Below are positions 4,680-62,650 of a DNA stretch of 64,000 bases, piece by piece. Each line of letters starts with the position of its first letter. Position 1 is the stretch's first letter. The DNA lies in assembly GCA_030324005.1 (NCBI GenBank), contig JARDVH010000193.1, forward strand, positions 30,813,337-30,877,336. Direction: 5' to 3'. The notes below the pieces were generated by a model that had not been told where the DNA came from, did not search any database, and saw only the letters and a program-made list of their open reading frames with translations. The DNA comes from Negaprion brevirostris. Its lineage: Eukaryota. Position numbers and translations under genes: made by a program.

Positions 4680-5280
4680 GGTTTGGGTTATCACAGAGGG
4701 AACAGTACCTTCAGAATGCTGACAGGGGAAGTGGGGGTAAGGCATGCTTGGCTGTGGCTGGAGATGGCGCACATGGAGGAGGATGATCCTTGTGCAGTTG
4801 CTGGGGGGGAAGGTGATGTCAAGGGGATCCGACAATCATTCTGGGAGTGAATGGTCCCAGGAATGGTGGGGGGGCCCTGTTAATTACGATACAGGGAATC
4901 CTCAGTTGAGGGAAATGGAAGGTATATCAGAAACCCTGACATGGAAGGCACATCTTTTGTTTCTTTACGTGTCTCATTGCCACTCTCTTTGGCTTGTGTA
5001 CCACAAAACCTTTTCGTCATGTATTCTGTCCGGCCCTCCAGCCTATCATAGAGCTCCACTTCTGTTCTTCCTCTACGATCTGCCCCCTCTAACCCCAATC
5101 CACCCAGACCGTCCCCTAACCCCCAGCCTTCACCTGGTCAAAACATTTCTTATTTTGCTCAGTTCTAATCAAAGGCCTGTGACCTGGAACATTTGTTTTT
5201 TCTCTCCACCAAAGTTGCCAGACTTGTTGTGAGTTTCCAGTACTTCAGATTTCCAACTTCTACAGTGTTTTGCTTTCCAT
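4680..5280. mobile_element. Penelope-like element fragment (minus-strand coding piece joined to plus-strand 3' terminus)
   Basis: Minus strand encodes RIILLHVRHLQ-like PLE peptide; plus strand ends in TTGCCAGACTTGTTGTGAGTTTCCAG...TTCAGATTTCCAAC PLE terminus. Confidence 0.7.
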
Positions 5281-12257: not shown

Positions 12258-12540
12258 GGGCGGCATGGTGGCACAGTGATTAGCACTGCTGCTTCACAGC
12301 ACCAGGGACACAGGTTCGATTCCTGGCTGGGGTCACTATCTGTGTGGAATTTGCACATTCTCAACGTATCTGCATGGGTTTCCCCTGGGTGCTCCAGTTT
12401 ATTCCCACATTCTGAAAGATGTGCTGGTTAGGTGCATTGAACCAAATAGGCGCTGGACTGTGGCAACTAGGGGAATTTCATAGTAACTTTATTGCAGTGT
12501 CAATGTAAGCCTTACTTGTGACTAATAAGTAAACTTTATT
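12258..12540 (+). mobile_element. HE1-head SINE with alternative (Rex1-like) tail
   Basis: GGCGGCATGGTGGCACAGTG...GGTTCGATTCC head; tail TGTAAGCCTTACTTGTGACTAATAAGTAAAC. Confidence 0.9.
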
Positions 12541-16726: not shown

Positions 16727-16840
16727 CAAACACAGTAAGAAGCCTAACAACGCCAGGTTAAAGTCTAACAGGTTTATTTGATAGTAAATGCCACATGCTT
16801 TCGGAACACGCTGTTCCTTTGTCAGGTGAATGGAGATTCA
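16727..16840 (-). mobile_element. Penelope-like terminus containing hammerhead relic
   Basis: Minus: CAC CTGACAA A GGAACA GCG TGTTCC GAAA GCAT GTG...TTTAACCTGGCGTTGTTAGGCTTCTTACTGTG; homologous to 31323-31365. Confidence 0.75.
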
Positions 16841-24605: not shown

Positions 24606-27121
24606 ACCTTGTTGGTCTCAATTTTAATTTTAAAGTTAATTATATTTTCAATGATCAATTTAGTCCCTGAATTTGTCAAAAAAGTCACTCAAGAGATACA
24701 AAGCAATGAATCTGTGTTAATGGGTTTAAAATAATCAAGACACATATATGTACATTCTGCTCAGCTTGTTGGCTCACATGTTTATTTATATATATGATAT
24801 ACATTGATTTGTACTAAAATAACCGTTAAACTATATTATCAATATCGAATCAAGCAAATTCATTGAGAAAATTCAACAGCATATAAATATTCTGAAAAGA
24901 TGCTCATGAATAAATAAAGGAAATTCTGAATATTTCTTAACAAAAGTAGATTCCTTTTTTAAAAAGCAGTACATTGTGCTCTTTTGCTCACACGTTCTGG
25001 TCACCTCCACATTCTGGTCATCTCCACAAGGTCCATGGAGAATCACTGATTGATCTCCCTGTGGGGCTCATTGAGTTCCCCTGGTAACTGGCTGTGGTCT
25101 GCCTAGCTGGAACTCATTACCTGAGCCTTTTATAAGGCAGACCCAGGACTGGGCCTGCTAAACAGTCATCCTAGGCAGGGACTAGTGTGTGTATACCATG
25201 GTATGGTTTTACTTTGTGTTCTGTAATATACTATGTTCATTTCCAGTCAGACATCCTGAATAATTGCACATACATAATTTTTTACCATGTGCTTTTAGTA
25301 ATAGCCTGCTATCAACTTACAACCTTACAATGAAACAGCTTCAATTCTTTCCCTTCCTGCAGTTGATAATGTCCAGGATTGAAACACAGGATTTTTCTGC
25401 ATGCAGCTTGTTTTGCTGATCAGTTTTAATGGTATTTTATCTGATTAAATAAAACTGTTCGTAAAGAACAACTGAACATAGTTTGACTAAATTGTTTTTA
25501 TCTGCCCATCACCCAGTTTGACTGTGACACTTGCGTCCCTCCTTCAATTGTCCCAAAAAACATCTTCATCTTAAAATCACAAATCATTATCAGGTACTTG
25601 AGAAGTGTAGCTCGTTATTTCTGACACAGAATAGAGTACCTGTAACCTTTTAAACCCACCTTGTAAGACGCACGTTCACCGACTTCTCAGAAATACAACA
25701 GTTATCTACCAGCAAGGAAAAACTGTTCCCCTCAGACTTTGGAATCTTACTGTCTGCCGCCCCACATCCTCCCGCAGGCTAAGCTTGGATTGGGAGCCTG
25801 GCAATCTCAGCCTCTTAATTTTCCTGGACCAGGTCCTGCAACTCCTTAGGACAATTTTCCCTTTTTATTCAAAACACTGGTCTCTGTGTTCTCTTTTCTT
25901 TTAAAAAAAAACTTTGTAACAACACTTTTTTTTAACTCAAGTGCCAGCTTCCTTTAAACTCAAAATTACAACTCTTTTCTCTGAGAGTTAATTTCTCCAT
26001 ATTTCTAATCTTTTGATTGTATTGGCTAACCCAGGCTCATTTTGTATCCATTCTTTAGGGTCTGGTAACATCACAACATCTCACTTAGTCTATCCACGTA
26101 GAGGCAGGCATTCAGGTGACTATCTTTTTTCTTCAGATTTCAATCAAAGCAGAATATTCATAGGTGTCGGGCCACAGGCAGTGTTCTCATAATTCATCCC
26201 ATCCTTGTCACCAATGCAATGATGCACACTCACAGATTTCCAGAAACATAAAAACTATTAATTAATTAGGAAAAACTGGACGGAGGCCAGGAGTAGCCCA
26301 TCGGCTGATCCAATCCCTACACGCCTTCTACGTGTCTTCAGATTGTCTTCTGCCTAAGAGAGAGCACAACCCCCTGGGGTGATTACCCACTCTTGTCCTC
26401 ATTGATCCCCCAAGTCTGGTGAGCCTCTTCTACTGTGTTGTCCTTAAAGGGACAATCACTACACACCTCAGGTTGTACAAAGCTTGTGGTGTAGCGCTAT
26501 GTTAAATTGCTACTTCAGACTCCATCAATTACCATGACAAACAAAAACACTAAACGTTCAACACCATGGAGCAGTAATGCCATAATCTAGTCCTAGATCT
26601 ACACCGATCTTGCATAGAAACATGATCAAGTACATTCATTGAAAATCAATGTATTCCAATGACTGAACCCAGGCTCTCACTATGTGTGTTTTCCAATCTG
26701 TTCATGGTGTGACATGGTTGTTTCATTTGGTAGTGTTATTGCAATCACTGCATATTTCTAATTAATGCAGTTCACAGCACTAATAATTCCACCTCCTTGC
26801 CTACAGTAAGGCAGATTGAGGATGGGGTGTGGGTTGAATGTCGTCCTGGCTTAGGGTACACTGAAACAACACAGCAGTAGCATTAATGAAAGCTGGGTAG
26901 GACTTTCTATGTGATGTCCTCTGAATGTTACAGAAGACTACTACATACTCCCATTTTACAGCAGTCCCTGACCCATAACCCTATCCCTTCCTGTGCAACC
27001 TTCTGTGCGGATGGAAGTACTGTCCCTTTCTTTATGAACAAGATTTTGTCCAATTCAATGTTGTGTTAGAGGTAGAAGTCTCCAGCTATTTTGGAGGCTC
27101 TTATCTAAGCCTCTGATTTAA

Positions 27122-27330
27122 GAAACCAAAAGAGAAAGTGCTGGAAAATCTCATCAGGTCTGACAGCATCTGTANNNNNNNNNNTGATGTTTTGAGTCCA
27201 GATGATTCTTTATCAAAGTGGGCTTTGGTACATCTCTTTTCTTTCCTTATAGATACTGTCAGACCTGCTGAGATTTTCCAGCATTTTCTCTTTTGGTTTC
27301 ATTCCAGCATCCTCAAGAATTTGCTTTTAC
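27122..27330. mobile_element. Penelope-like termini in inverted arrangement
   Basis: 53-bp inverted arms 27122-27174 / 27248-27300 (4 mismatches), with a minus-strand hammerhead relic between them. Confidence 0.8.
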
Positions 27331-28480
27331 TCTGAAGTAAGACTATAGAATTCCCCTTATTTGGTCAATTGCAATATTGGTATAGGCCACGTTATAACTG
27401 TTGTCCCTTTCTGGATGAAGAAACCTTGCTAGCATTATAGGTCATGACTTCAAAGAATAGCTCTGATCACCAATTAATATTTGACTCCAATTTCGAAGGA
27501 GTGGTATGGTAATTTGCTATATAATGCTTGCATGATTACAGTTTCAAGCATATTGGACACTCGCCTGCTGTATCGGGCAATTGGCATCACACACTAACTG
27601 TCCAGAATTATAAAATTGATGCAATCTCATATGNNNNNNNNNNNNNNNNNNNNNNNNNNNNNNNNNNNNNNNNNNNNNNNNNNNNNNNNNNNNNNNNNNN
27701 NNNNNNNNNNNNNNNNNNNNNNNNNNNNNNNNNNNNNNNNNNNNNNNNNNNNNNNNNNNNNNNNNNNNNNNNNNNNNNNNNNNNNNNNNNNNNNNNNNNN
27801 NNNNNNNNNNNNNNNNNNNNNNNNNNNNNNNNNNNNNNNNNNNNNNNNNNNNNNNNNNNNNNNNNNNNNNNNNNNNNNNNNNNNNNNNNNNNNNNNNNNN
27901 NNNNNNNNNNNNNNNNNNNNNNNNNNNNNNNNNNNNNNAGACTCGATGGGCCAAATGGCCTCTTTCTGCAGTGTAGGGTTTCTATGATCCTAGCCTTGGC
28001 CTTCTGCAGAATTGCATAGCTCTCTCTTGAATTGGGAGGCTATTAATTATCTAGATCTTCTGATTAGAGCATCAGTTACTTTCTTGATATATATTGACCT
28101 GCTGATTGACTTATGCAGCATTTGCTGCCTAGAAGGATCCAGTTGAAAAGAAATTTGCAGCATGCAGATCTTCATCTAGCAGTTGACGTATCTTCACAAT
28201 CATGTCAGGTGGGTGAGAGATGGTGGGGAAAAGGCCATTAACAGCCATCTGAGATTGAAATATTCAAAGATTTCTGACGATGTGGTATATCGGTGTACTC
28301 ACGCTGCCATGATGCTGTATATTAGGATTCCTACCGGAAAATCAACTTTCATCGTGAAAAACTCCACTTTCTGCTAATGAAAGAGGGCAGTAAAGGTTTT
28401 GACAGATTCTACAGAGGACCAAATTGATGCGGGGTTAATCTTCAACAAGGAAGATGCCTTCTTCAGAGTTATATTAATCA

Positions 28481-31290: not shown

Positions 31291-31406
31291 ATGATGTGGG
31301 TATGCCGGCGTTGGCCTGGGATAAACACAGTAAAAAGTCTGACAACACCAGGTTTTAGTCCAACCAAATCGGTTGGACTAAAACCTGGTGTTGTCAGACT
31401 TTTTAC
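31291..31406. repeat. Penelope-derived terminus folded into a perfect inverted repeat
   Basis: Arms 31330-31365 and 31371-31406 are exact reverse complements (36/36); loop AAATC. Confidence 0.9.
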
Positions 31407-34214: not shown

Positions 34215-35330
34215 GCTAAGAAGTGTTATAGTACAGAAAGAGGCCATTCAGCCCATCGTATCTACACTGGCCATAAAAGAGAAAAAAGAAACTAGCCACT
34301 CATTTTAATCCCATTTTCCAACACCTGGTCCATAGCCTCACAGATTCCAGCTTCAGATGCAGATCCACATACCTTTTAAATGAATGTTTGAGCTTCAACC
34401 ACCACTTTAGGCAGTGAATTCCATATACCCACTGTCCTCTGGATTAATATGTTCGACATGTCCCCTCTAATTTTTCTACAAATCAACCAAAGTTTATGCC
34501 CTTGGTAATTGTCCCTCAGCTTTGTTTGCCTTCCCCAAATGCATTGCCTGTTTCCTTTCTAGGTTGAATTCCATTTGCCGTTATTTTGCCCACTCAACTA
34601 AACCATTTACATCATTCTGGAGAAGACAGCTATTCTGTTCATTATCCATTAACGGCCAACTTTTGTGTCATCTGTAAATTTCCCAATCATATCTCCCACA
34701 TGTAAGTCTAAATCATTAATATATACAATGAACANNNNNNNNNNTTTCCATTTGCAAAAACTTCCATCGATCACTACCCTTTATTTGCCATCATTGATCT
34801 ACGTTTGGATCCAACCTGCCACCTTCCTTTGTATCCCCTGGGATCTCACTTTTCTGACCAGTCTGTCATGTGGGACCTTGTCAAATGCCCCACTGAAATG
34901 TATGTAGACAAAATTCACTACGCTACTTTCATCAACTCTCCTTATTACTTCCTCAAAAATCTCCATTAATTTAGTAAGACAAGATCTTCCTCCAGCAAAA
35001 CCATGCTGACTATCCCTGATCAATCTGTGTCTTTCTAAGAGACATTTTATCCTATATGGCAGAATTGTTTTCAATAATCTGCCCACCACCAAAGTCATAC
35101 TGACTGCCCTATATATTCGGGCTTATCCCTTTTAAATTATAATATAATGCTTGCAGACCTCCAATCCACCTGTTATTTGCTCGCTGGCTTCCTTCGACAA
35201 CCTGGATACAATTCATCTGGCCCAAATGATATCCACCTTCAAGGAAGAACTGCCTCTCTCTTGCTTATTGTATCTAATATTTCACACTCTTTTTTGACTA
35301 GAATGTCTGCACCCCTTTCCTTAATCTAGG
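34215..35330 (-). mobile_element. CR1 LINE with RT-domain remnant
   Basis: LIRDSQHGFAGGRSCLTKLMEIFEEV...VYIHFSGAFDKVPHDRLVRKV. Confidence 0.95.
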
Positions 35331-46369: not shown

Positions 46370-46655
46370 GAACCTTCTCTGCCATTTGGCCATTCACACC
46401 CTTTATTCTCTCTGTGGACAGCCATTAGCAGTCTTTTCTCCTGGTTTCTGTGGCTGTGACTCATCTTTCATTCCCTTCCCCTGCGGTATTAATATCTCCC
46501 ATTTCTATGCCTTTTAGCTTTGACAAAGGATCACCTGTACTCGAAACGTCAGCTCTTTTCTCTCCTTACAGATGCTGCCAGATCTGCTGAGATTTTCCAG
46601 CATTTTTTCTTTTGGCTTCAGATTCCAGCATCCACAGTAATTTGTCTTTATCTTG
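46370..46655 (+). mobile_element. Penelope-like 3' terminus
   Basis: Pyrimidine-rich UTR then CAGATGCTGCCAGATCTGCTGAGATTTTCCAGCA...CAGATTCCAGCATCC. Confidence 0.85.
46516..46554 (+). ncRNA. Minimal type-I hammerhead ribozyme motif (U3-A8 variant, stem II imperfect)
   Basis: AGCT-TTGACAA-A-GGATC ACCT GTACTC-GAAAC-GTC-AGCT: stem I AGCT/AGCT, GAAA box, palindromic ACGT stem III, GUC cleavage triplet. Confidence 0.7.
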
Positions 46656-48063
46656 CTTAATAAATTCTACTTGATTCATGAATGCTAGTTATTCGTTCCT
46701 TGTTGGGTCAGGCACAACTGAGGAACCCATTGTTGGAAATAAATAATTTGGAACTTAGATGTTTTAAATAAAAGGATTTTCGACATCAAACCCTCAAGAC
46801 ATATATGTGGTAGTTGTAGGGCAAGGAGTGATGAATGGGGGGCACTAATTTGGCATCAGACTATAAAGGATCATTGGGATTGGGTACAAGGGCATGGATT
46901 GAAATGGAGGGCGTGAAGAATTATGGAGGGGTTGGAGTCAGGTATGAGTTGGCATGAATGGGATTTGGGGGGGTTATTGAGGACTAGAGAAACATTTTAT
47001 GTTTTATTCTTTATTTTAAAAATTGAACACAGTGCAGGCCCCGAGGCAGGCCAACCACCTAGCCTGCCTCCGCACCCAGCATCCTCCTCTTTACTTCTGG
47101 GGACTTCTAATATAGCCTGTCCCCTCCTCTTACACCAAAACTATTGGGTCCTGCAGCCTATTTGAAAAGTTGCATTCAGGGAGCCAGGAATTCTCCCAAC
47201 TCTGTGCCTCAACTTGCTGATGAAAATCTGGACCCGCAGTCTTGTGAAGAGCACAGCACAAGACTATTAGTCATATAAAGAATTAATGAGGATCATGTTT
47301 TCTGTAGTTTAGAGTAATATTAGTGTCACTAAGTAATGTTTCGTCAATGTTGCTTTTAGTTTGTTTACTACAGTAAAAGTCTTGTAACTTGAAATCCTTT
47401 ATGTGGATCACTGGGAATTCAAGTGTCTTCTTAAAAGTTATCAGCCTCTACAGGGATCATAGCAGTTTTGTCAAGTATTGTGTGCACACTTCAATAACTC
47501 TGTAGTGGATAATGAATGTTTTAAGAAAAGTTGTCATAAATTAGCACTTTGAATTGGTTTCAGCTGCACTTGCTGAAAGAGCGCTCTGTGTTTTTGGAAA
47601 CTGTAATTCTGAGCCTGTTTTATAATATTTTCTTACGATTGGGATGTCATACCCTGTTTGTTGTGTAGTTGTGCTATTTCCAGCAAAATATAGTTCATCC
47701 TATATGGGGCAGCTCACACCACTGTCTAATACACTATTCTTCTCCATGCTAAATGCTGACAAATCAAACCGATATGAACTTGAGCTACAGATTTAAATAC
47801 AGGTGCACTGTTTTTCCAATTATTTCTAGGCGTTGTTATTAACTTCTGAAAATTATTAATGCCACCCCTCTTTCCTGACACTAAAATGTTAATGATTTGA
47901 CCTAATTCTCCTAAAGTATCCAAGTTGTCTGTAGAATAGTAAATTTGGCCGTACTATAAATGGGGCAAGTTGTATTGCTCAGTCACTTGAGAGTAGCACT
48001 GTTCCTTCAGTCTCATTCACTTTATCCACTCACTTAAGTTTTCCTTTACTTATCCATGCATGG

Positions 48064-52469: not shown

Positions 52470-53560
52470 CAAAACACTACAGATATTAGAAATCTGAAAT
52501 AAAAACAGGAAGTACTCAGCAAGTCTGGCAGCATCTGCAGAGAGAGATACACAGTTAACCTTTCAGTTCTTCCATCAGAACTGGGAAAAGTTAGAAATGT
52601 CATAGGTTTCGACAAGTGAGAGAGGATTAAAGGAAGAGAATGAAAGGACGATCCTTTGACAGGCTAGAGGGCTGACAGGTGAATTGGGAAATGTTTTAAT
52701 CTCTGCTCATGATGTGGGGAGACCAAACGTAGACTGGGTGACAACATTGCAGAACCCCTCCACTCAATCCACAAGCATGACCCCAAACTTCCTATTGCCT
52801 GTGGCTTTGATCCTTCACCCTGCTCCCACTCTGACCTTTCTCCCCTTGGCCTCCTGCAATATTTCAATGAAGCTTAACACTAGCTTACAAGAAGTAGTTC
52901 ATTTTTCTCATTGCTTCTGAAGATCTGCCTTTGCGACAGCCTCCCACCTCATAGACCCCCCAACATGATCAGCCTGCTCCTGCCTCTTTCCCAGAAGAGG
53001 AATGAGCTGGTAGGCTCATTATTTCAGCCTCTCTTTGCTCCACTGAATCGATTGCTTCCTTTTTCAGCATTCTGAAGGGAATGTTCGTTCCATGATACCC
53101 CGGTTCGCTTCTCAGTCATCCTCCATATCTCTTCCCTTCTTGTGGCATCTTTCCATGCAAGTATAGGCGATGCAATACCTCTCCTTTTTAATGTCACCCT
53201 TCCTACTATCAAAGGCCCCAAACATTCCTTTCAGGAAAAATAGTGATTTATTTGTAGTTCTTTCAATTTAGTATACTCCATCTGTTGTATACTATATGGC
53301 CTGATCTACACTAGGGAGATGAAATGCGGACTGGGTGACTAATTTATGGAGCATGTCCACTCAACCTGCACATGTGACCACAAACTTCCAGCCACCATTG
53401 TTTTCATTCTCCATTTGCTTCCAGTCTGACTTTTCTGTCCTTGGCCTGCTACAACGTTCCAATGATACTCAATGCAAGCTCAAGGAATGACACTTTATCT
53501 ATTGACATGTCACTTTACATTCCTTATGGACTTAATATGGAGCCAAACAATTTTGGATCC
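52470..53560. mobile_element. Penelope-like element: inverted terminus plus GIY-YIG endonuclease remnants
   Basis: Plus ~52716: GETKRRLGDNIAEPLHSIHKHDPKLPIACGF; plus ~53250: CSSFNLVYSICCILYGLIYTREMKCGLGD; minus-strand terminus 52470-52585. Confidence 0.85.
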
Positions 53561-54427: not shown

Positions 54428-54750
54428 GGGTGGCGAGGTGACACAATCGTTAGCACTGCTGCCTCACAGCGCCAGAGACCCAGGTTCAATTTTGACCTCA
54501 GGTCACTGTCTGGAGTGGAATTTGCATATTCTCCTCATGTTTGCATGGGTTTCCTCCGGGTGCTCCGGTTTCTGCCTACAGTTCAAAGATGTGCAGGTTA
54601 GCTGGATTGTCCATGCTGATTTGCCCCTTAATGTTAGGGGAACTAATAAGGTAAATATGTGGTGTTGTGGGGATAGGGCCTGGGTGGGATTGTTGTCAGT
54701 GTAGACTCAATGGTCTGAATGAGCTCCTTCTGCATTGTAGGGATTCTACG
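54428..54750 (+). mobile_element. HE1-type SINE, CR1-type tail
   Basis: Head, core and CTTCTGCATTGTAGGGATTCT tail. Confidence 0.9.
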
Positions 54751-54899
54751 AGTCAGCTGCTCGTCCATTTCTGGTGAGAATCTGAATATATTATTTAAAT
54801 TTATTCTAATATTCATTAACATGTGTTTAGTGAGTTTGGCACTCAATCATTCAGGCTCACTTTATGGACTTTATGACCTTATGGACTCACCTGGAAATG

Positions 54900-56149: not shown

Positions 56150-57170
56150 CCCATTACCACTCACTTTGGCCATTTGGAGCGAAACCTTTAGTTATTTCAT
56201 CTCTCCTGCCCTCAGCCCCATCACAGCCTTCCCTTTTGTTCTTCCTCCCTGTCTTTCTCTTTCCTTCACTTAACCAAAGCATTTACTAGAAAGGTCGGCA
56301 ACCTGAGACGTCAGGCTGAATTATCCTGGTCCTAAGGATTGGAGGTGGTGAGGCAGGGAAAATATCGGAACCATGTCAGGTTGGCTTCCTGACGTAATCC
56401 CATCCTGGCAATTTTTCCCAGGGACAGGCTGAGAATTATTGGCTACCCAGTCCAGGGTGGCAGACAGCCAATTTATTCAACTAATGCCCCAGTTAGGGTC
56501 CATATTGTACTGTTACCAGTATTTACTGACATTGGAGTGGCCCCTTGCTATATGCAGAGGCTGCCAGCTCAATTGACACCAGGCCTGGGGTCCATTAGAG
56601 CTGGAAACTCCATGTCCCAATGGTGAAGTGATGGGGTTGGGACCAGTGAGAAAAGCTTTGGAGCTTTTACTGGCGTCTTCTGTGAAGCCTTTCTGCACTG
56701 GCCAGCAAGGGCACCAATGTGGAGTACCTCCGTCCTGTGGCACCCTTACAGTCCTTGACCTACCTCAGCAGTGACCAGTTCCCCTGATGGAGCTGCCAAA
56801 CCTCCAAAGCTTTTAGCTTTGGGCCTACAACATAGGTAGCCCCACCTATCCTCCTTAATAGNNNNNNNNNNNNNNNNNNNNNNNNNNNNNNNNNNNNNNN
56901 NNNNNNNNNNNNNNNNNNNNNNNNNNNNNNNNNNNNNNNNNNNNNNNNNNNNNNNNNNNNNTAATAGGATGGTGAATGTGGAGATGGCCAATAAGGGGCT
57001 GTCACCCGAAAGATTGTGCCCCTTGTTTCATTGCTGGGAACCTTGAGCTCAGTACCTCATCTAGTCCATACCTCAGGGTCCTTAAGGCTACTGGAAAATT
57101 GAGCTCAATAATTCTGTTTTCTCCCTCCATAGATGCTGCCAGGCCTACTAAGCATTTCTAGCATTTTCTG
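56150..57170 (+). mobile_element. Penelope-like 3' terminus split by a MITE (56313-57106)
   Basis: AAAGGTC..ACCTGAGACGTC | AGGCTGAATTATCC...GGAAAATTGAGCTC | ...TCTGTTTTCTCCCTCCATAGATGCTGCCAGG. Confidence 0.7.
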
Positions 57171-61699: not shown

Positions 61700-62650
61700 T
61701 TCAGGAAGGATGGCCTCGTCAAAAGGTTGGGTCATTCAGCTCCTTGAGCCTGGTCCACCATTCAGTTCGACCATGGCTGACCTGTATCTTAACTCTCTCT
61801 ACTCTCTGTGGTTCTGTTACCCTTAATATTGTTGTTAGACACAAATCTATCATTCAGTTTGCAAATTTTCAACTTACCTAACTGCCCTATTTCTTTGTGA
61901 GGAAAGAGAGTTTCACGTTATTACTACACCTTGTGTGAAGAAGTACTTCTTGACATCATCGCTGATGATGTTTTTGAAGTTTATACTCCTTGATCTAGAC
62001 ACTCTGTCCAGAGGAAAGAGTTTTTTTTCTCTAATTTATTCTACCTATGTTCTATGGGACAGTATGGTGGCAATGGTTAGCACTGCTATCTCACAGCACC
62101 AAGTACCCAGATTCGATTCTTGCCTTGGGTCTCCCTGTGTCTGTGTGGGTTTCCTCCGGATGTTCCAGTTTCCTCCCACAGTCCAAAGATGTGCGGGTTA
62201 GATTGATTGGCTGTGCTAAATTGTCCCTTAATTTCAGGGAGCTTACCAGGGTAAATAAGTGGTGTTATAGGTATAGGGCCTGGGTGGGATTGTTGTCAAT
62301 GTAGGCTCGTTAGATCAAATGGCCTCCTTCTGCACTGTAGGGATTCTGTGATTCTATGATTCAAAGCCTTTAATAATCTTAAACACTACAAGTTGATCAC
62401 GCCTTAGTCTTCTACATTCAAGGAAATGCAGGCAAAGTCTATGCAGCCTGTCCTCATCAATTAACCCTTTAGCTCTGATATCATTCTGATGAATTTGGAG
62501 TGCCTTCTTCCAAGGCCAATATACCGTTCCCAGAACATGTTGCAATACTCCAGGTATTGTCTTTCCAGATCTCTATACAAGTATAATATAACTTGATTCT
62601 CTTGTTTCCTAGTGCTTATGTGATAGAAGTCAGCTATGAACACTCTTATG
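61700..62650 (-). mobile_element. Old CR1 3' end interrupted by a SINE
   Basis: LYRDLERQYLEYC...FIRMISELKGL..EDRLHRL.LHFLECRRLRRD..VFKIIKG (62360-62650); tail-like 61700-62045. Confidence 0.7.
62058..62358 (+). mobile_element. HE1-type SINE, CR1-type tail
   Basis: Head GGTGGCAATGGTTAGCACTGC; tail CCTTCTGCACTGTAGGGATTCT. Confidence 0.9.

Follow-up and report, generated by a model that had tools for sequence, protein, structure and literature searches.

Is the hammerhead-like sequence at positions 46516-46554 of the window (the whole stretch of 64,000 nucleotides analysed here) a ribozyme whose core was inherited in altered form from the founder of a repeat family, or a standard core altered copy by copy by ordinary decay? 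The question is raised by its core, in which the C3-G8 tertiary pair reads U3-A8. A sequence-only reading of the window had assigned the motif to a Penelope subfamily and proposed that a covariant core had been fixed under selection for self-cleavage. Our analyses make it probable that the focal stretch is a worn minimal type I hammerhead at the end of an abundant, likely Penelope-like repeat, with a U3-A8 pair that was likely inherited from the founder and not made by decay.

Anatomy of the motif and its expected chance rate

Read directly from the window, the sequence runs AGCT-TTGACAA-A-(15 nt)-GAAA-CG-TC-AGCT, the layout of a minimal type I hammerhead (Table 1). In hammerhead numbering, the residues of the core box at 46520-46526 are U3, U4, G5, A6, C7, A8 and A9. 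Stem I of the focal copy is 4 bp long with all four positions paired (AGCU/AGCU), each strand being self-complementary, and stem II is closed by G10.1-C11.1 (G46528-C46542). The GUC triplet is present, with the predicted cut after 46550 (46550/46551). The sequence-only reading had described a tiny palindromic stem III; the palindrome was confirmed as the bare helix III side of the motif, A15.1-C-G-U16.1 (ACGU), but loop 3 is absent and the element is not a hairpin.

An extra nucleotide, a G10.1-C11.1 pair and a palindrome are listed as traits of the minimal hammerhead class by Cervera and De la Pena (2014, PMC4209133), whose paper defined the motif. The focal motif has the extra nucleotide after position 9 and before 10.1, G10.1-C11.1, and GAAA together with a U3-A8 box variant listed in that paper, as well as a palindromic 15.2-16.2 pair, no loop 3, an NUH triplet and a short stem I.

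To estimate how often such a layout arises, we used a relaxed descriptor that accepts any Watson-Crick 3-8 pair, demands complementary 15.2/16.2 positions and a 3-bp stem I, and does not require stem II. It gave a single match in the 64-kb window, at 46516-46554, compared with a mean of 0.07 matches in Markov-simulated windows (at least one match in 6 of 100), and the anatomy is as the earlier reading had claimed. The core box UUGACAA does not satisfy the strict CUGANGA descriptor, and at E values up to 10 a hammerhead was absent both among 13 Rfam matches in the window and from the one match of a 191-base stretch. Whole families thus go undetected when the search relies on a strict CUGANGA descriptor or on Rfam. 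Single-strand folding of the focal copy gave a structure unlike a hammerhead and no stable fold (z +0.42). A hammerhead fold was not obtained from single-strand folding of the window copies, nor was a dimeric hammerhead formed when two unchanged window copies were cofolded. The focal copy, judged by its two lost stem II pairs, is probably inactive.

Table 1. Features of the focal repeat end and of related ends in the window
Feature	Position	Strand	Basis or remark
Upstream portion of the same repeat (partial)	46472..46515	+	Loose ends of the 57-base core before 46502 resemble 46472-46501 in 4/4 runs
Stem I 5' strand AGCU, positions 2.4-2.1	46516..46519	+	Window sequence
First core box UUGACAA (U3 46520, C7 46524, A8 46525)	46520..46526	+	Window sequence
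Extra nucleotide A between A9 and G10.1	46527..46527	+	Trait described for Penelope minimal hammerheads (PMC4209133)
Stem II and 5-nt loop; 3/5 pairs in the focal copy	46528..46542	+	
GAAA (46543-46546), C15.2-G16.2 (46547-46548), U16.1-C17 (46549-46550)	46543..46550	+	
Stem I 3' strand AGCU, positions 1.1-1.4	46551..46554	+	Window sequence
Downstream tail of the repeat	46555..46651	+	First part common to sister subfamilies; ends cluster at 46644-46654
Copy 2, left target-site duplication	27111..27122	+	10/12 match to 27330-27341
Copy 2, arm carrying the decayed hammerhead (box UUGAUAA, 27216-27210)	27122..27218	-	10-N gap at 27175-27184
Copy 2, inverted arm (tail, core absent)	27231..27329	+	
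Copy 2, right target-site duplication	27330..27341	+	12 bp
Sister subfamily end, decayed	52553..52582	-	Retains C3 and G8; stem I AGUU/AACU; tail begins as in the focal copy
Further sister end with heavy decay	5161..5273	+	AGTT then CTAATCA; C3 kept
Different repeat family, decayed hammerhead	16791..16829	-	CUGACAA; intact 5-bp stem II

The family majority completes stem II

For family-level data, we aligned 7 of 24 listed public sequencing runs, one from each of seven related organisms (A-G), with run X1 aligned twice; the 24 runs cover 8 labelled organisms, with some runs unlabelled. Two query stretches were used, 46490-46660 (171 bases) and a 57-base core. Repeat-bearing contigs were present in all seven runs aligned. 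The 171-base stretch recruited 23,870-46,932 contigs per run, sister subfamilies included, and the 57-base core 1,373-2,032 contigs per run. Depth is not copy number, and comparison with simulated copy numbers points to a family perhaps of the order of thousands of copies.

In all four runs of the 171-base stretch, the majority letter differed from the focal copy at 46530 (G, 66-95%), 46534 (T, 82-94%) and 46538 (G, 95-99%). Majority G at both 46530 and 46538 pairs stem II at five of five positions, compared with three of five in the focal copy. This completion by the family majority led us to reject a chance likeness to a hammerhead. The missing Rfam match and the unstable fold of the focal copy speak for coincidence; against them stand the 0.07 descriptor matches expected per window even with stem II left out of the pattern, the filled stem II, and a layout that agrees part by part with the published consensus. 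We regard the probability of a chance resemblance as practically nil.

Decay of the two CpGs inside the motif affected 16-32% of depth in organisms A, B and C, compared with 8-15% in organism D. Part of this decay is loss of G12, seen in 9-26% of depth, and we conclude that inserted copies decay freely. The lower CpG decay in organism D implies that its copies are younger, and of the organisms covered, D and F seem to have the least decayed copies. In run X12 (organism D), CpG decay was about half that of A-C, and private variants at 4-9% were seen at 46533, 46571, 46580, 46602 and 46618, which suggests a later burst of the repeat family in this lineage.

Other copies and sister ends in the window

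Relative to other copies, the focal copy has a small deletion near 46501, and no target duplication of at least 8 bases was found around it. The tail stretch at 46571-46606 folds as a long hairpin in the focal copy and is the part most widely common among sister subfamilies (depth peak); it is a candidate protein-binding or priming element, as judged from the predicted fold.

The second copy of the subfamily (copy 2, 27111-27341) is a fold-back insertion, in which two inverted arms of one repeat end lie inside a 12-bp target duplication. The sequence-only reading had recognised this copy by its UUGAUAA box on the minus strand and by a shared CTTTT..CC flank. The box is where it was claimed to be, but on that strand the flank is covered by the 10-N gap, and the full flank lies on the plus arm (27231-27301). 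Copy 2 has lost G12 (AAAA in place of GAAA) and G16.2 and retains only 2 letters of the 5' strand of stem I. Since G12 is the proposed general base of the hammerhead (PMC6155905), copy 2 is very likely dead. The suspicion of the sequence-only reading that both copies are inactive is probably right.

The earlier reading had also held that other Penelope subfamilies in the window keep C3. This is true of the ends at 52553-52582 and 16792, but the latter belongs to another family and carries a lone A8, giving a C3-A8 mismatch, with an altered cleavage triplet. The occurrence of a lone A8 in this decayed copy means that two copies alone could not prove a compensated core. The sister end at 52553-52582 differs from the focal stem I by a two-sided change of pair 2.2-1.2. 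A further end with the same tail start lies at about 57089-57170, where the core is not recognisable.

A near-perfect 69-base inverted repeat at 31334-31402, which drew a spurious Rfam microRNA match, has an arm resembling the tail after the 16792 hammerhead; it is probably a fold-back end as well. The window also contains many copies of a SINE-like repeat, with short repeats that accompany it, at 12259-12439, 54429-54754, 62056-62356 and elsewhere (families D1-D17). Pattern scans for further copies of the motif returned none in viral contigs and none in metagenome contigs; three bacterial matches among prokaryote genomes were taken as chance.

U3-A8 as the likely founder state

The differences listed for the 171-base stretch seem to miss positions near alignment ends, and none are listed for the 57-base core. 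We modelled the depth profile of the core, treating short contigs as clipped at majority mismatches in a simulation that uses no letters, with aligner settings that were fitted and not known. The observed 57-base profile steps at exactly three known majority mismatches. Increment correlation was highest for a founder equal to the window at positions 3 and 8: a single parameter set gave 0.97-0.98 in all four runs, compared with 0.83-0.85 for a C3-G8 founder. The root-mean-square error was 0.019-0.027 for the window-like founder and 0.048-0.099 for C3-G8, with founders carrying a single change in between. In run X17, a C3-only founder tied on this error (0.027) but not on increment correlation (0.94 vs 0.97). 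When a C3-G8 founder was mixed in, admixtures of up to 20% fitted about equally well, 40% somewhat worse and 60% or more clearly worse; in this simulation, then, a 20-40% share of an otherwise identical C3-G8 founder may be compatible with the depth profile.

Letters at the fold-back junctions bear on the same point. Loose ends before 46516 terminated in CAA in all seven runs that listed them and in TCAA in six of these seven, and never in CAG. Reverse-complemented, the opening of a U3 box reads CAA or TCAA, although the consensus agreement at these ends, which lie outside the alignment to the reference, was low (0.34-0.35). In run X17, ten letters of the loose ends were the exact reverse complement of 46520-46529, A8 included. 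The differences listed provide a further, weak accounting: no A>G change was left unaccounted for in three of four runs and no C>T in two of four, the unaccounted changes being one A>G and two T>C in X5 and one T>C each in X1 and X12. U3-A8 was read in both core-bearing copies of the window and in one copy from run X5.

The opposite reading, which the sequence-only account had itself named as the case that would overturn it, is that of a CUGACGA founder whose copies acquired U3 and A8 one by one in the course of ordinary decay, with loss of the CpG giving A8. The dinucleotide C7-A8 does look like a decayed CpG, and the 16792 copy has exactly the lone A8 that such decay would leave. This founder was nevertheless the worst fit in all four runs, with errors of 0.048-0.099 that rose to 0.10-0.13 at full admixture, and the junctions read CAA and not CAG in seven of seven runs. 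Moreover, the CpGs of the motif are decayed in just 8-32% of depth, and under a CUGACGA founder G8 should have stayed the majority letter. We rejected copy-by-copy CpG decay on these three grounds, and consider it highly improbable. Together, these indirect lines (depth-profile modelling, fold-back junctions and change counts) favour the view that the founder of a high-copy subfamily likely had U3-A8 already, and that the pair is not the product of independent decay, in line with the earlier claim that the lineage had fixed this pair.

Apparent copy starts at the 5' edge of the ribozyme

In simulation, the 57-base depth profile was best reproduced when about 30% of copies started at 46516 (out of 0, 15, 30 and 45%), and unique and shared sequence upstream of these starts fitted about equally well. 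Opposite-strand joints cluster at 46516-46520, and many of the starts appear to be head-to-head fold-backs centred on the AGCT palindrome. The predicted cut site, 46551, was absent among the best-supported loose ends listed. Taken at the level of sequence, the pile-up at 46516 would be consistent with uncut RNA being copied, and fold-back or truncation then taking place at the self-complementary AGCU.

Identity of the element

The repeat has the insertion layout of Penelope-type elements, with an inverted, 5'-truncated arm beside the terminal repeat and a variable tail, as seen in the copy 2 fold-back, the opposite-strand joints and the tail ends at 46644-46654; the inverted layout has been described for Penelope insertions (PMC8557442). 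A six-frame motif scan and a Pfam search of 46 frames did not find a Penelope protein beside the motif, which truncated stubs would in any case lack. The GIY-YIG domain was found in none of the 46 frames scanned with Pfam, 45 of which came from 87 listed frames with those over N runs left out. One RVT_1 match was obtained in the 46 frames, 11 kb from the motif. It corresponds to a reverse transcriptase fragment at 34802-35122 on the minus strand (E 1e-7) that adjoins no hammerhead end. The assignment to a Penelope subfamily made in the sequence-only reading agrees with the minimal hammerhead consensus of Penelope-like elements, but a protein gene was not found beside the end in the frames scanned.

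Alternatively, the repeat could be a hammerhead element that is not autonomous, carried by Penelope machinery in the manner of a retrozyme or SINE, and not the end of a coding element. A reading frame linked to the end was not found, and in a 2026 preprint animal retrozymes count as Penelope sequences that are not autonomous and are present in its one chondrichthyan genome (bioRxiv 10.64898/2026.07.22.740005). That preprint, however, defines retrozymes as tandem repeats, whereas the copies in the window are dispersed stubs; one of them has an inverted arm and a target duplication, sister subfamilies have the same tail, and most minimal hammerheads are described as single remnants of truncated elements (PMC4209133). 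A passenger is accordingly improbable, and the repeat, as far as its sequence features indicate, is likely the end of a Penelope-like retrotransposon.

Proposed mechanism, origin and selection

In an active element, the RNA would fold into a 4-bp stem I and a 5-bp stem II, with U3-A8 replacing the C3-G8 tertiary pair. Without loop 3, the ACGU palindrome would pair with a second copy or the element's protein would assist, and the RNA would be cut after GUC at 46550/46551. Once inserted, copies decay unconstrained, the focal copy with the loss of two stem II pairs. C3-G8 sisters with the same tail, together with the two-sided change in stem I, indicate that the founder probably descends from a C3-G8 relative. 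The likeliest route, we infer, would be a change of G8 to A at the CpG followed by a change of C3 to U.

Whether cleavage was selected is less clear than the founder state. The U3-A8 founder may have been fixed with no selection on cleavage, by two common transitions in a ribozyme irrelevant to transposition. Several observations favour such a course: insertion of an anole element in vitro was unaffected by hammerhead mutants (PMC11167929); Naiad elements thrive without canonical hammerheads, and their authors suggest that the motifs may parasitise elements (PMC8557442); both changes are transitions, G8A being easy at a CpG, as the lone A8 of the 16792 copy illustrates; and the 2014 alignment contains a U3-G8 family of Saccoglossus (PMC4209133). 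Yet the only two core positions that changed are the partners of one pair. The 11 conserved positions can form 55 pairs, which makes this 1 outcome in 55, or roughly 1 in 10 with G8A assumed; neither figure allows for the fact that this very feature drew attention to the motif. In the family majority both stems are also intact, and a two-sided change separates stem I from that of the C3-G8 sister. We therefore consider fixation without selection rather unlikely and, from the pattern of sequence change, lean towards selection for self-cleavage.

A bolder reading joins these elements: a vertebrate Penelope lineage would have independently re-invented U3-A8 through CpG loss of G8 and rescue by C3U, with stem I changed in step, and multiplied it into thousands of copies across seven or more related species under selection for cleavage. 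We put this forward tentatively, with somewhat more doubt than belief. If true, it would provide a natural experiment for selection on Penelope hammerhead cleavage, although one in vitro system dispenses with cleavage, and the pile-up of copy starts at the 5' edge of the ribozyme would mark a place where the self-complementary AGCU fixes processing or fold-back.

Comparison with known systems

Natural U3-A8 cores were reported in 2011 and presented there as the first natural occurrence; in vitro activity is reported for covariants at positions 3 and 8 (Perreault et al., PMC3088659). Those hammerheads share the 3-8 covariation of the focal motif, and in the passages that describe them the U3-A8 examples are not tied to Penelope ends or to the form lacking loop 3 (PMC3088659). 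The link with Penelope-like elements was made in 2014, when U3-A8 was found in the minimal hammerheads of the Cercyon elements of Schistosoma mansoni, where hits number roughly 1,300 (Cervera and De la Pena 2014, PMC4209133). The boxes in the 2014 alignment include UUGAAAA and UUGAUAA, and also U3-G8 (PMC4209133). The sequence-only reading had missed this earlier publication of U3-A8 in Penelope hammerheads. Minimal hammerheads have no helix III and are considered to work as low-activity dimers (PMC4209133; review PMC6765202).

The Cercyon motif is among the closest known matches to the focal motif. Both are type I with no loop 3, a palindromic C15.2-G16.2, an extra nucleotide after A9, G10.1-C11.1, a short stem I and a U3-A8 core, and both occur mostly as single dispersed copies (PMC4209133). 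The focal motif differs in its host group, which is vertebrate-like, in having C at N7 and a 5-bp stem II, and in that both of its stem I strands are the self-complementary AGCU. The presence of C3-G8 sisters in the same window suggests an origin separate from that of the Cercyon U3-A8 core.

The anole Poseidon element PAc provides a functional comparison. There, cleavage is abolished by C3G and by G8C and is restored in part when the two are combined (Frangieh et al. 2024, PMC11167929); cleavage needs protein, and the hammerhead is dispensable for insertion in vitro (PMC11167929). Like the focal motif, PAc carries a vertebrate Penelope-type hammerhead; it is located at a pseudo-LTR, its 3-8 pair matters, and its insertions end downstream of the ribozyme (PMC11167929). 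Unlike the focal motif, PAc keeps C3-G8 and has a known protein (PMC11167929). Animal non-LTR retrozymes resemble the focal case in having a type I hammerhead in a Penelope-tied repeat, including in one chondrichthyan genome, but they are tandem repeats and the focal copies are dispersed stubs (bioRxiv 10.64898/2026.07.22.740005). The term 'U3-A8' is absent from the main text of that preprint, and terms for shark, skate and Callorhinchus are absent from one supplement file of PMC4209133. In the literature outside subscription journals and repeat databases, a report of U3-A8 from a shark was not found, and a search for 'U3-A8' gave the 2014 paper.

The U3-A8 variant, the motif class and the fold-back style of insertion have all been published already, and the focal family is a new example of them. 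On its own it matters little, and it is material for the question of whether Penelope elements require their hammerheads or simply carry them as passengers. With a high-copy U3-A8 family found in seven related organisms, alongside C3-G8 sisters that have its tail, a subfamily tree combined with a simple cleavage assay would bear on that question.
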